Below the pieces are notes generated by a model, which worked only from the letters and a program-made list of their open reading frames with translations, searched no databases and was not told the origin of the DNA. From positions 1 to 54,581 of the IMG/VR virus record IMGVR_UViG_3300023093_000003: a stretch of DNA of 54,581 nt. One strand, written 5' to 3'. Positions 3,174 to 7,315 of the stretch are shown here, piece after piece (the stretch's first letter is position 1; each line of letters opens with the position of its first letter). The DNA is from a virus (Duplodnaviria; Caudoviricetes). A program made the position numbers and the translations under genes.

Positions 3174-3403
3174 CCATGCTCGCCAACCTGCCGGACTGGC
3201 CGGCCGCCATGAACCGCGAAGCGGCGCTCGCCTTCACCGGCGTCGCCGAGTCCCAACTCAAGCAGTGGGCGAAGGTCGGCAAGGTGCGCTTCCGCGCGCG
3301 CGGGCCGAACGGCCAACTGCTTGCGCTCAAGTCCGATCTCGAAGCCGCGCTCGTCGAGATGTTTACCGCCGCCGACGAAGAGGATCTCGACTTTGGCCAG
3401 TGA
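3170..3403 (+). CDS. Excisionase-like HTH protein
   Basis: WPAAMNREAALAFTGVAESQLKQW resembles a MerR/Xis-type HTH; overlaps the integrase start. Confidence 0.7.
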   Translation: MTMLANLPDWPAAMNREAALAFTGVAESQLKQWAKVGKVRFRARGPNGQLLALKSDLEAALVEMFTAADEEDLDFGQ

Positions 3404-4613
3404 ACGGCTGCCCTCCTATGTCCAGGTGCGCAAGCTCTCAGGGGGCAAGCGGTATTTCTGGATTCGTCCGCAGTGGGCAAAGCCGCCGGCGATGCGGCAC
3501 GGCAAGACGTGCCCGGTGACATCCTCGCCGCTCGGCGATGACCTGGCGATTGCGATCACCCGGGCCAATGCGCTCAACGCCGCCTTCAAGGAATGGCGCG
3601 AGGGTGTCGACACGCGGATGGCGCCCGGTTCGGTCGAGTGGCTCTTCGCGTGGTTCCGCAAGCTGGAGAAGTTCACCGAGCTCCGGCACAACACCCGGGC
3701 CGGCTACTCGACCTGCATGGAGATGGTCTCCGCGATCGAGATGAAGGTCGGCCGATTCGGCACCCGCCAGGCGAAGGTGATCGACGCGACCGCCGCCGAC
3801 GCGCTCTACAAGAAGGCGAAGGCCAAGCACGGCGATCGCCAAGGCTCCTACATGATGCAGGTGTGCCGGCTGGTATGGAACCAGGCGGCGCGGCACGACA
3901 AGGTCACTGGCGTGAAGTCGAACCCGTTCGCGGGCATGGGCATCTCCAGCAGCAGCGGGAAGGGCAAGGGCAACGTCGCGGCCAGCCGGGCGCAGTATGA
4001 CGCCTACCGGGCCGCGGCGCGCGCTATGGGCCGTCAGAGCATGGCCACCGCGGCCGCGATCTGCTTCGAGGGCTGCCAGCGCGTGTTCGACGCCTTCGGC
4101 TTCACAGATCCCGACGGTCGCGTCACGCGCGGAGTGCGCTGGGGCGGATACAAGCCGGGTGAGAGCATCGGCCTCGTCCAGTCGAAGACCGGCAACGTCG
4201 TCGACATCCCCCTGGTCGACAAGGTCGATGGCGAGCTCGTCGCGTTCTACCCCGATCTCGAGGAAGAGATCGCCCGCCTCACGCGCGGCGCCGACGATGC
4301 CCTGATCGTCCTCGATGAGCGCACCGGCAAGGCCTACACCAAGGACTACATGAACAAGCTGCACCGGCGCATCCGCGACAAGGCGGGGCTGCCGGCTGAG
4401 ATCAAGTTCACCTCGTTCCGGCATGGCGGCATTACCGAGATCGGCGACAGCGGCACCGACGACGTCCGCGCCGTCAGCGGTCACAGCACGCTTGAGGTCA
4501 CCCGGATCTACAACAAGGCGAACCAGGAGAAGGCGAAGCGGATCGCCGCGCGCCGCCGCGAGCATATCGAGATGCTGACCGCCGGCGCAGCCGAAGCCGA
4601 GGAGGAAGCATGA
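3393..4613 (+). CDS. int: Tyrosine recombinase / phage integrase
   Basis: Catalytic-type motifs GCQRVFD (R), QSKTG (K), TSFRH (HxxR position), SGH and IY; probable TTG start at 3393 (track start 3321). Confidence 0.9.
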   Translation: MASERLPSYVQVRKLSGGKRYFWIRPQWAKPPAMRHGKTCPVTSSPLGDDLAIAITRANALNAAFKEWREGVDTRMAPGSVEWLFAWFRKLEKFTELRHNTRAGYSTCMEMVSAIEMKVGRFGTRQAKVIDATAADALYKKAKAKHGDRQGSYMMQVCRLVWNQAARHDKVTGVKSNPFAGMGISSSSGKGKGNVAASRAQYDAYRAAARAMGRQSMATAAAICFEGCQRVFDAFGFTDPDGRVTRGVRWGGYKPGESIGLVQSKTGNVVDIPLVDKVDGELVAFYPDLEEEIARLTRGADDALIVLDERTGKAYTKDYMNKLHRRIRDKAGLPAEIKFTSFRHGGITEIGDSGTDDVRAVSGHSTLEVTRIYNKANQEKAKRIAARRREHIEMLTAGAAEAEEEA

Positions 4614-5718
4614 CATGGCTCTACGTCCCTGGAACGTCCTCGAATTGTGCGCCGGAGCCGGAGGGTCGGCCTCGGTATCGAACTCGCCGTGCCCGGAGCG
4701 CGTGGTATCGCTTACGTGGAGAGGGAAGCAGCGGCCGCCGCGAAGCTGGTCCACCGCATGGAAACGCACGACCTGGCTCCGGCGCCTGTCTGGTCTGACC
4801 TTGCCACCTTCAACGCTCGCCCGTGGCGTGGACGCGTTCATTGCGTCGCTTCCGGAGATCCATGCCAAGGAAACAGCGTCGCCGGAAAGCGGCTTGGCGT
4901 CCTCGACGATCGCTTCCTCATCGACCAGGTTCTCCGCGTCGTCGATGAGTGCCGGCCTCTCCGTCTCTTCCGAGAGAACGTGCCGGGGAACACGGACGGC
5001 CAACTCGCCGCCCTCGTGGGGCCATTGGAGCGAATGGGCTATCGCGTTGAATGCGGAATATTTGGCTCGGGCGAAACCCGGAACAGTCACGGACGAAAGC
5101 GACTGTTCGTCATGGCCGACGCCATCAGCCCAGCAGTTCGAAGCCGACGATTTGGATCGGCTACTCGATCGACAGGCGGCGCAGGCGGAGAAGAACGGCA
5201 ACAACGGTTTCGGCATGACGCTGGCGAACGAGGTGCAGATCTGGTCGCGGCAGTGGCGGACACCGAACGCGATGATGGCGATGCATGGGCCGATGGACCC
5301 GGAATATCGTGCGCGCAAAGGGCAGACGGTATCGCTGGACGACCAGGCGTCGACTTGGGCTACGCCGACCGCGTGGATGACGAAAGGCGGCGGGGACGCG
5401 CTGACCCGGGCGGACGGGAAGAGCCGGCTCGACATGCTCGACTGGCAGGCGGAGGCGTGGTCCCGCTCGTCGTGCCCGGACCCGACGATCCCGCTTGGCG
5501 AGATATCATCGACCGATGGCCGCAACTCACTCCCGCAATCGACAAAGAGCAGGCTCAACGTCTTCTTCACGGAGGCTTTGATGCGTTGGCCGATCGGGTG
5601 GACCGACTTCGGCTGCTCGGAAACGGGGTCGACCCAGTGGCGGCAGGATATGCGTGGCTATCTCTGGATGCTCGTCACCGCGCGCATCGGGAGCGAGCGG
5701 CAGGGCGCTCTATTATGA
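4610..5718 (+). pseudogene. Alternative-frame (beta) chain of the C5 methyltransferase carrying motif IX, frameshifted at the same site
   Basis: ATG 4610 overlaps the int stop; RLNVFFTEALMRWPIGWT is motif IX-like; repeated W-x-T-P segments; the same +1 base restores the frame. Confidence 0.7.
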
Positions 5719-5732
5719 AGGACGCAGCATGA
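4615..5732 (+). pseudogene. C5-cytosine DNA methyltransferase, large (alpha) chain, frameshifted at about 4665
   Basis: Motif I VLELCAGAGG is in the 4615 frame; GDPCQGNSVAG (IV), FRENVPG (VI), RKRLF (VIII) and LRLLGNGV (X) are in the 4647 frame. One inserted base after 4665 joins them. Confidence 0.85.
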
Positions 5733-6004
5733 ACGCGAAGAAACTCGACCGAGCATTGGCCGCAGAAGGCATTTCCATGCCTCAGGTTCTGGAGAAGGTC
5801 GCTGGCGGCAGCCGATCCGACGATCAAATTGCGCGAAATGGGGCGCGGGCAACCCTGAGCCAGATCGACAAGCTGCGTAATCAACTCGCCCAGGCAGAAC
5901 GGTGCTGCCAGCATGTTATATCGACCGGCACAGTCCGGCACGATGACGCCGCAGTCTGGCGTAGGGTTGAGCGCGCAGCCGATAAGCTCCTCGGGACATT
6001 CTGA
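5729..6004 (+). CDS. Hypothetical protein
   Basis: ATGA overlap with the MTase stop; last gene before attP. Confidence 0.6.
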   Translation: MNAKKLDRALAAEGISMPQVLEKVAGGSRSDDQIARNGARATLSQIDKLRNQLAQAERCCQHVISTGTVRHDDAAVWRRVERAADKLLGTF

Positions 6005-6419: not shown

Positions 6420-6605
6420 ATGAGCGGGGTGGACGAAGTAGCTCGGCTGCTGACGACGGCAGCGGCACGGGCCAAGCAAGCTGACCACCACGAGGCCGAA
6501 GCGCTGCGCTATTCGAAGTGCGATTGCGCTGGGTGTATCGCGCGCTCGGCCAATCATTTCACGATCGCCGCCGGTCTGCGCGGCCAAGCTAGGTTCCGGC
6601 AGTGA
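6420..6605 (+). CDS. Hypothetical protein
   Basis: GGGAG upstream; coupled to the next gene; CDCAGC motif. Confidence 0.5.
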   Translation: MSGVDEVARLLTTAAARAKQADHHEAEALRYSKCDCAGCIARSANHFTIAAGLRGQARFRQ

Positions 6606-7315
6606 TGGCGCTGGTGTACCACGGCACCCCCATGACGCCCCGAGAGGCCGCGCGCGAAGTGCTGCCGGGCCGGGCGGTCTGCGTCAGCTTCTATCGGCCC
6701 GACACCGTTGATATCGCCGAGGCGGTCGCGCCCTTCATCATGTATGACAACGGCGCATTCTCATTCTGGAAGCAGGCATTGCGCGCCGGCAAGGAATGGG
6801 ACGAGACGCAGCGCGATTGGTCGGCCTATTATGCATGGCTTGAAGGGCGCCTGTTCCAGCCCGGCCGCTGGGCCGTCATCCCCGATCAGCCCGGCGCGCC
6901 ATCCCAGCTCAACGATGCACTGTTGAATGATTGGCCGCATGGGACCGCCCGAGGTGCGCCGCTCTGGCACATGGACGCTTCGGTTGATCGCCTTGGGCGG
7001 CTGTGTGATCGCTACGATCGCGTCTGTCTCGGCTATGTCGGCCCTGAGAAGTCGGTCGATTGCCCTGCCTATCACCGCCGCATGGATGATGTCGCACGGT
7101 TCCTCGGCAACCGCTGGCCCACGCTTCACATGATGCGCGGAACCGCTGTTGCTGGCCGGTATCCGTTCGCCAGCGCTGACAGCACCTCTCTCGCGCAGAA
7201 CGGTCACCGCTACGACTGGCGCGACCACCAGCATGACATGCTGAGCAACGTCGTGCCTGCGCGCTGGAATGGTCGCCGGGCTTATGCCGATAATCTCGAA
7301 AGGATCGCCGCATGA
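6605..7315 (+). CDS. tRNA-guanine transglycosylase (TGT/DpdA)-like protein
   Basis: YHGTP N-terminus, DNGAFS, VIPD, WH and SADSTS resemble the aspartate motifs of TGT-fold phage proteins. Confidence 0.55.
   Translation: MALVYHGTPMTPREAAREVLPGRAVCVSFYRPDTVDIAEAVAPFIMYDNGAFSFWKQALRAGKEWDETQRDWSAYYAWLEGRLFQPGRWAVIPDQPGAPSQLNDALLNDWPHGTARGAPLWHMDASVDRLGRLCDRYDRVCLGYVGPEKSVDCPAYHRRMDDVARFLGNRWPTLHMMRGTAVAGRYPFASADSTSLAQNGHRYDWRDHQHDMLSNVVPARWNGRRAYADNLERIAA

Follow-up and report, generated by a model that had tools for sequence, protein, structure and literature searches.

Two fully overlapping frames of a phage cytosine-5 methyltransferase gene likely encode a two-chain enzyme, with a one-base deletion in the copy of a Caudoviricetes genome

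The window analysed here, a stretch of 54,581 nucleotides (nt), corresponds to positions 1-54,581 of the record IMGVR_UViG_3300023093_000003, a virus of the Caudoviricetes. It harbours a DNA (cytosine-5) methyltransferase locus at ~4600-5732, downstream of a predicted tyrosine integrase gene (Table 1). Two forward frames of this locus are open over ~1.1 kilobases (kb), as the first-pass annotation of the sequence had reported. Frame A is open at 4615..5718 and gives a product of 367 amino acids (aa) in the list of open reading frames (ORFs). Frame B is open at 4647..5732, has no stop since 4611-4613, and encodes 361 aa counted from the first GTG. In the following, alpha designates the chain with the catalytic methylase motifs and beta the chain read from the other frame.

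Motifs are numbered according to the ten-motif scheme of DNA (cytosine-5) methyltransferases. Frame B contains motifs IV, VI, VIII and X and no motif IX, while frame A contains three W-x-T-P units and a motif IX-like stretch; both observations agree with the first-pass annotation. The annotation had also assigned motif I to the frame of motifs IV-X. In the window, motif I is located in frame A, apart from motifs IV-X in frame B, because of a one-nucleotide deletion; in intact relatives motif I does belong to the same chain as motifs IV, VI, VIII and X. The two start codons proposed earlier, ATG 4610 and ATG 4615, are indeed 5 nt apart, and the first of them overlaps the integrase stop TGA 4611-4613. 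Neither is in frame with the body of its own chain, both chains being split at ~4665. ATG 4610 opens the third frame; this closes after 62 codons, at 4798, and has 8 stops within 4610-5732. The AGGAGG sequence upstream probably serves both starts. The methylase gene has a guanine plus cytosine (G+C) content of 64%, and an antisense ORF of 710 codons (3438-5570, minus strand) spans the integrase gene and most of the methylase gene. Therefore, the open frames in the window alone prove nothing.

Table 1. Features of the methyltransferase locus and adjacent genes in the window
Feature	Positions	Strand	Details
Tyrosine integrase gene	3321..4613	+	Pfam PF00589, E 1.7e-5 (below the curated cut-off); phrog_216 (integrase), E 4.8e-9; stop overlaps the ancestral beta start (ATGA)
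Shine-Dalgarno-like AGGAGG	4600..4605	+	4 nt before ATG 4610, 9 nt before ATG 4615
Beta N-terminal piece	4610..4665	+	M-T-W-L-Y-V-P start; frame of 4610; out of register after ~4665, stop 4798
Alpha N-terminal piece	4615..4665	+	Frame of 4615; motif I (LELCAGAGG) 4639-4665; aligns with the alpha N-termini of relatives
One-nucleotide deletion site	4664..4665	.	Within the run GGAGGGTC; shifts both chains by -1
Beta body (frame A)	4666..5718	+	Frame of 4615; WPTP 5113-5124, WRTP 5254-5265, WATP 5356-5367; D-G-K-S-R 5413-5427; motif IX-like stretch 5551-5604; stop TGA 5716-5718
Alpha body (frame B)	4665..5732	+	Frame of 4647; V-E-R-E-A 4716-4730; GDPCQ (IV) 4854-4868; FRENV (VI) 4968-4982; RKRLFVMA (VIII) 5094-5117; P-G-P-D-D 5475-5489; LGNGV (X) 5616-5630; stop TGA 5730-5732
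Unconserved alpha spacer	~5118-5474	+	Between motif VIII and P-G-P-D-D
Next gene, 91 aa	5729..6004	+	ATG overlaps the alpha stop (ATGA)

Both frames are kept open in relatives of the gene. A scan of viral contigs with the single beta protein found 3 loci, and the alignment-guided scan found at least 548 relatives. The set picked with beta consisted of 82 viral loci, of which 6 were dropped as duplicates or the window itself, leaving 76 distinct loci for screening. Fifty-eight of these passed the beta filter, namely an ORF with a W-L-Y-V-P-like start and motif IX. The alpha frame (the beta frame minus 1) was not selected for, and it remains open in 58 out of 58 loci, ending at most tens of nt from the beta stop. 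Over the 22,576 codons of these loci no stops were present in the alpha and beta frames, compared with 623 in the third frame and 349-435 in the antisense frames. The 710-codon antisense ORF is thus a G+C artefact of the window copy and not a conserved gene. Synonymous-codon shuffling (200 shuffles per locus) predicted 7.3 alpha-frame stops per gene when beta was held fixed, with a median share of stop-free shuffles of 0 and a maximum of 0.025. When alpha was held fixed, 3.8 beta-frame stops per gene were expected, and the median stop-free share was 0.005.

A second set of loci was picked blind to beta, by a genome scan with the alpha alignment, and 62 out of 80 loci have motifs IV to X in one ORF. 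The +1 frame, which is the frame of beta, is stop-free from motif IV to 25 codons before motif X in 54 of these 62 loci (2.55 stops expected), and the +2 frame has 8.7 stops versus 9.5 expected. Per gene, about 9-11 stops occur in the third frame. Fifteen of the 54 stop-free loci have a G+C content below 55%, down to 40%. The first-pass annotation had named stops in the second frame of homologs as evidence against its proposal; instead, both frames are open in the 58 beta-picked loci and in most of the alpha-picked ones.

Starts of the two frames lie close to each other. The nearest alpha-frame start is located at -7, -4, +2 and +5 nt from the beta start in 2, 16, 20 and 19 loci, respectively, which accounts for all 57 loci with upstream sequence. 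A Shine-Dalgarno-like tetramer is present 3-18 nt upstream in 37 of the 57. In two loci, L017 and L041, beta runs ~500 nt beyond the alpha stop (counted from the W codon, 614 and 586 codons versus 432 and 418 for alpha), pointing to a C-terminal extension of beta or to its fusion with the following gene.

Selection along the gene was studied in a beta-guided codon alignment of the 58 loci with 321 well-occupied columns. The codon position that varies most belongs alternately to beta and to alpha (Table 2). For the calculation of omega, changes were counted by their effect in both frames in 86 pairs of 75-99.5% identity; the distances are uncorrected and the pairs are not independent. Both frames are clearly constrained around motif IX only. 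The alternating selection indicates that the essential parts of each chain overlie the spacer of the other chain. Since the neutral spacer of alpha is never closed and the start of beta is selected in its own frame, the pattern fits two full-length polypeptides rather than a chance ORF or a recoded single chain.

Table 2. Third codon position with the highest variability and omega in six segments of the gene
Segment	Alignment columns	Most variable third position	Omega alpha	Omega beta
W-L-Y-V-P start of beta	0-10	Beta	13	0.47 / 0.04
Motifs I-VIII	10-160	Alpha	0.23	0.67
W-x-T-P region	160-250	Beta	1.0	0.60
P-G-P	250-260	Alpha	0.13	1.6
Motif IX	260-285	Beta	0.22	0.10
Motif X	285 onward	Alpha	0.43	0.69

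Alpha is related to known C5 methyltransferases. Frame B matched Pfam PF00145 with 40.6 bits (cut-off 22; E 2.8e-10) in residues 65-157 only (positions 63-160 of 324 of the profile), and the match of alpha to TIGR00675 was below the cut-off. Among 41 aligned alpha chains, GDPCQ, FRENV, RKRLFVMA and LGNGV are invariant or nearly so. No recognition region or motif IX was found in alpha between motifs VIII and X, where the alpha alignment has no conserved stretch and omega of alpha is 1.0. In a search of PDB sequences, the alpha profile matched M.HhaI over motifs IV-VIII (E 2.7e-16). The same profile also matched PDB 3g7u (E 1.1e-10), a 'putative DNA modification methyltransferase' of prophage CP-933R of E. 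coli. The model of alpha from an intact relative, locus L046, has a predicted local distance difference test (pLDDT) value of 74.8 and corresponds to the large domain of C5 methylases, with its best Foldseek matches to M.HaeIII (1dct_A, E 3.9e-12 over 171 columns) and M.HhaI (E 2.4e-11). Residues 174-231 of this model fall below pLDDT 50, and the alpha spacer is probably disordered.

Beta matched no Pfam or NCBIfam family. Proteins of the beta type are present in PHROGs, in phrog_1008 ('DNA methyltransferase') and phrog_27243. The search with the beta protein retrieved 225 database homologs at E ≤ 0.001 among 3,558 candidates; these are 'hypothetical' where named, and 0 of the 120 listed have a Pfam domain. 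At E ≤ 0.001 the beta profile matched 23,148 representative clusters, a number that fell to 2,799 at E ≤ 1e-30. Matches of this profile to MS2 coat sequences in PDB (E 0.0012, per-stretch E 3.4) were taken as chance. The conserved stretch of beta ahead of motif X is a putative motif IX by its likeness to the motif consensus and by its place, and it matched no model. Beta chains of the 58 loci possess 0-5 W-x-[TS]-P units, and the one in the window possesses three. This variable region is likely the target-recognition region. The lack of conservation in alpha between motifs VIII and X fits a recognition region located in beta.

The window copy differs from its intact relatives by one base. In the relatives, the chain starting with M-(T)-W-L-Y-V-P continues into the frame of the W-x-T-P units, and the chain starting with M/V-A-L-R-P and containing motif I continues into the frame of motifs IV-X. 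In the window both N-termini are one frame off their bodies, with the switch at ~4665. We aligned contigs of four sequencing runs over 4400-5900, a comparison at contig level. Contig X2, a relative from another study that covers 4557-5120, has an extra A after 4664, and contig X4, a relative from a second other study that covers 4625-4736, has an extra C after 4665. Since the relatives have an extra base at 4664/4665, the window copy carries a one-nucleotide deletion that shifts both genes. Contig X1 from Logan, with a depth of 13.6, belongs to the sole run with the whole stretch and is identical to the window over 4400-5900. None of the runs listed for the stretch was an RNA run. It probably derives from the same source sample or reads, so that its agreement with the deletion is not independent.

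As written, translation from ATG 4615 would join the first 17 residues of alpha, including motif I, to the beta body. Translation from ATG 4610 would reach a dead end of 62 residues, and the alpha body is left without motif I and without a proper start. From its sequence, the window copy is most likely an inactive, frameshifted allele, unless the missing base is an assembly error. Other loci have unusual frame arrangements. One, P0049, starts as alpha, with motif I and V-E-R-E, and then switches to beta. In L010 pieces of alpha and beta are located in frames off the usual offset, and L010, L032 and L043 appear to be frameshifted or partial. Both chains together seem to be lost, or switched off, repeatedly through single-base indels.

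The first-pass annotation had proposed to model the two chains as a complex. For the intact relative L046, the model of alpha with beta reached an interaction prediction score from aligned errors (ipSAE) of 0.89 (median of 3 runs), and the best control, out of 3, scored 0.00. Between runs, at least 83% of the contacts are shared, and pLDDT of the partners is 66-72. Of solved complexes, 116 out of 157 passed the ipSAE mark applied, as did 2 of 215 mismatched pairs; these counts are a rough guide only, since the L046 pair was modelled with our own alignments. The interface includes residues 37-74, 127-164 and 229-296 of alpha, and residues 1-10 and 224-294 of beta, among others. The complex model supports binding of alpha to beta, without showing it.

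Taken together, we consider it likely that the family consists of C5 methyltransferases made of two chains encoded in two fully overlapping frames, and that the window holds a copy with a one-nucleotide deletion which, barring an assembly error, is most likely inactive. The first-pass annotation had proposed such a two-chain enzyme for the window itself, with the second chain spanning the gene and possibly carrying the recognition region. Conservation, selection and the complex model argue for this proposal as regards the family, but the window copy lacks two intact chains of ~370 aa. In intact members, the alpha frame would encode the catalytic large domain with motifs I-VIII, then the unconserved spacer and the conserved tail from P-G-P to motif X. 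Beta, in the +1 frame, would comprise the M-(T)-W-L-Y-V-P start, ~150 residues over motifs I-VIII, the variable W-x-T-P region and the motif IX-like helix. Both chains would be translated by dual initiation on one messenger RNA (mRNA), from starts 2-7 nt apart behind a single ribosome-binding site, to stops within tens of nt of each other. They would assemble into one enzyme, as shown experimentally for M.EcoHK31I only, and this enzyme would methylate the phage DNA against host restriction, as inferred from phage methylases in general.

Other explanations have to be considered for the second frame. It could be a chance 'shadow' ORF of a G+C-rich gene, alpha being the sole real gene, which would agree with the 64% G+C, with the 710-codon antisense ORF over the same region and with the predominance of alpha's third codon position over motifs I-VIII. 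We regard this as hardly credible, since the third and antisense frames of the relatives are full of stops, the +1 frame is open in the 15 alpha-picked loci below 55% G+C, and the shuffles predict 2.5-3.8 stops per gene. Moreover, the W-x-T-P region and motif IX vary at beta's third position (omega beta 0.60 and 0.10), alpha is neutral in the W-x-T-P region, and the beta profile has matches in thousands of representative clusters. Programmed ribosomal frameshifting could also produce one polypeptide, with motifs I-VIII from alpha, the recognition region and motif IX from beta, and motif X from alpha. The selected segments do alternate in the order of a single-chain enzyme, with all motifs in sequence. 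Nevertheless, this is very unlikely, because at least four shifts would be required (from alpha to beta, to alpha at P-G-P, to beta at IX and to alpha at X), and because it leaves unexplained both the neutral alpha spacer, stop-free in 58 out of 58 loci with 7.3 stops expected, and the conserved start of beta under selection in its own frame. Beta could finally be a real overprinted protein with a function of its own, such as a regulator or an anti-restriction factor, and not a methylase subunit. Overprinted genes mostly encode unrelated proteins, according to the accessible parts of PMC8227390 and PMC6195259; beta falls into no Pfam or NCBIfam family, the sequence search gave no solved relative of it, and its binding to alpha is modelled only. 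This explanation appears improbable to us, given that the two parts missing from alpha, namely a helix resembling motif IX and a variable region for the slot between motifs VIII and X, are just those that beta supplies. Further arguments against it are the DNA methyltransferase label of beta-type proteins in phrog_1008, the confident complex model with clean controls, and the precedent of M.EcoHK31I, as far as the accessible text of PMC2836561 describes it.

For the window copy alone, the missing base at 4664/4665 could be an assembly or sequencing error, the phage having an intact alpha/beta pair. This is possible, although we find it rather doubtful. The site is a short G run (GGAGGG) and the depth is modest; in addition, the remainder of both frames is intact over ~350 codons, which is unusual in an old pseudogene. 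Nonetheless, the second assembly matches the window base for base, though it probably stems from the same reads, and further frameshifted alleles exist in nature or in assemblies, such as those in P0049 and L010.

Several points weigh against the two-chain reading or its details. Eighteen of the 76 viral loci failed the motif filter; 11 of them keep both long ORFs with a variant start, and the others either run into a contig end or are interrupted (L010, L032, L043). Stops in the +1 frame were present in 8 of the 62 alpha-picked loci, namely four classical methylases, L155, L119, L134 and L144. The four classical methylases, of low G+C, have 24-28 stops in the +1 frame, as the shuffles predict, and in L155 both stops fall after the end of its shorter beta. 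Beta of L046 modelled alone folds poorly, with a pLDDT of 58.9 and a predicted template modelling score (pTM) of 0.24. The good score of the complex, as two halves of one fold, may be due in part to likeness to solved single-chain methylases. Constraint on beta is weak over motifs I-VIII of alpha (omega 0.67, from uncorrected and non-independent pairs), and the ~150 residues of beta there may be little more than a stop-free tether. For every member examined, the two-chain reading draws on sequence and model, and the deletion is supported in the likely source sample by contigs only, not by raw reads.

The closest known case is M.EcoHK31I of E. coli HK31 (recognition sequence YGGCCR). In the accessible part of its description (PMC2836561), it is a C5 methyltransferase of alpha and beta polypeptides, both of which are required, and a different frame within alpha encodes beta, which has motif IX. 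The family described here is similar, with beta in another frame of the alpha gene, motif IX in beta, and motifs I-VIII and X in alpha. However, beta of M.EcoHK31I is small and nested, whereas here the ORFs are co-extensive, with ~370 codons each. Unlike in the published description of M.EcoHK31I, the starts are located 2-7 nt apart behind one ribosome-binding site, and while the recognition region of M.EcoHK31I is reported in alpha (PMC2836561, accessible part), the W-x-T-P region is in beta. The comparison is based on that description and not on sequence kinship. Complete overlap, shared starts and the likely recognition region in beta set the family apart from M.EcoHK31I.

Relatives from low-GC Bacteroidota and Bacillota resemble the layout of M.EcoHK31I. 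Their +1 ORF is nested, starting ~120-250 nt inside alpha and ending 50-110 nt before the alpha stop, and it is homologous to the window-type beta from ~residue 72 to the end (hhalign probability 99%, E 5.7e-18). M.AquI is another natural two-chain C5 methyltransferase, encoded by adjacent genes and split between motifs VIII and IX, so that the second chain contains motifs IX and X; here, in contrast, the genes overlap completely and motif X stays with alpha. Similar to M.HhaI and M.HaeIII, alpha possesses motifs IV-VIII and the large-domain fold. However, in those single-chain enzymes the recognition region and motif IX follow motif VIII in frame and precede motif X, and these parts are read here from the +1 frame. 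In actinophages, a methylase gene hides an HNH endonuclease that is read out of frame, and the host frame stays open as a loop, according to the accessible text of PMC11855218. Both cases have a second protein from another frame inside a phage methylase gene; as far as that text goes, the actinophage insert is a mobile homing endonuclease which covers the insertion only, while here the second protein would be part of the enzyme and covers the whole gene. A description of the two-frame methylase family was not found in the open-access literature (Creative Commons articles of PMC, and bioRxiv), REBASE and subscription journals being outside this scope. The accessible parts of PMC2836561, PMC3091744, PMC11954522 and PMC11855218 do not describe it either.

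The same co-extensive layout was found in Synechococcus phage Yong-M2-251, Acidovorax phage Alfacinha3, Burkholderia phage phi1026b and Salmonella phage S9-5, the last with an alpha of only 244 aa. A classical methylase of a Streptococcus phage has a +1 frame full of stops. Most phage records list alpha only, and some list beta only, under a methylase name; the annotated 'methyltransferase' of Alfacinha3 corresponds to the beta frame. The type of the Salmonella phage is present in 4 of 5,426 RefSeq genomes of E. coli, with alpha alone annotated.

Downstream of the methylase gene, the 91-aa ORF had no significant match in Pfam or PHROGs. Its start is translationally coupled to the alpha stop via ATGA, as is the start of beta to the integrase stop. 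Two genes downstream of the methylase gene, an ORF of 237 aa at 6602-7315 (+) matched phrog_887 'queuine tRNA-ribosyltransferase' (E 4.9e-36, positions 9-215 of 509 of the profile). It may be DpdA-like and act in 7-deazaguanine DNA modification, in which case the phage may have two DNA-modification systems side by side. The scan of the window for transfer RNA (tRNA) genes found none; therefore, this clue to an attachment site is absent.

Extended to all relatives, it seems reasonably probable that the cytosine methylases of phages and prophages include a major clade (tens of thousands of genes, 40%-70% G+C) of obligate two-chain enzymes, made from one mRNA with dual starts 2-7 nt apart and a gene of ~1.1 kb read twice. 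Their recognition subunit, with 0-5 exchangeable W-x-T-P units, would be free to diversify opposite the catalytic subunit's neutral spacer. Among the conserved same-strand overlaps known in prokaryotic viruses, none would be longer or more widespread, and only one of its two frames is annotated.

If the two-chain reading is true, a very common phage enzyme is only half annotated, and a clone of the annotated ORF by itself would be inactive, which could explain 'inactive' phage 5-methylcytosine (m5C) methylases in specificity screens. The recognition subunit could also be a module for engineering split, targetable methylases, a use that the accessible part of PMC2836561 reports for M.EcoHK31I. 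The family would illustrate, as a natural example with deep conservation, that ~370 shared codons can yield two functional proteins, and the alternating selection would show how this is possible, with the essential segment of each chain under the spacer of the other. In such a gene, a one-base indel like that in the window would disable both subunits at once.

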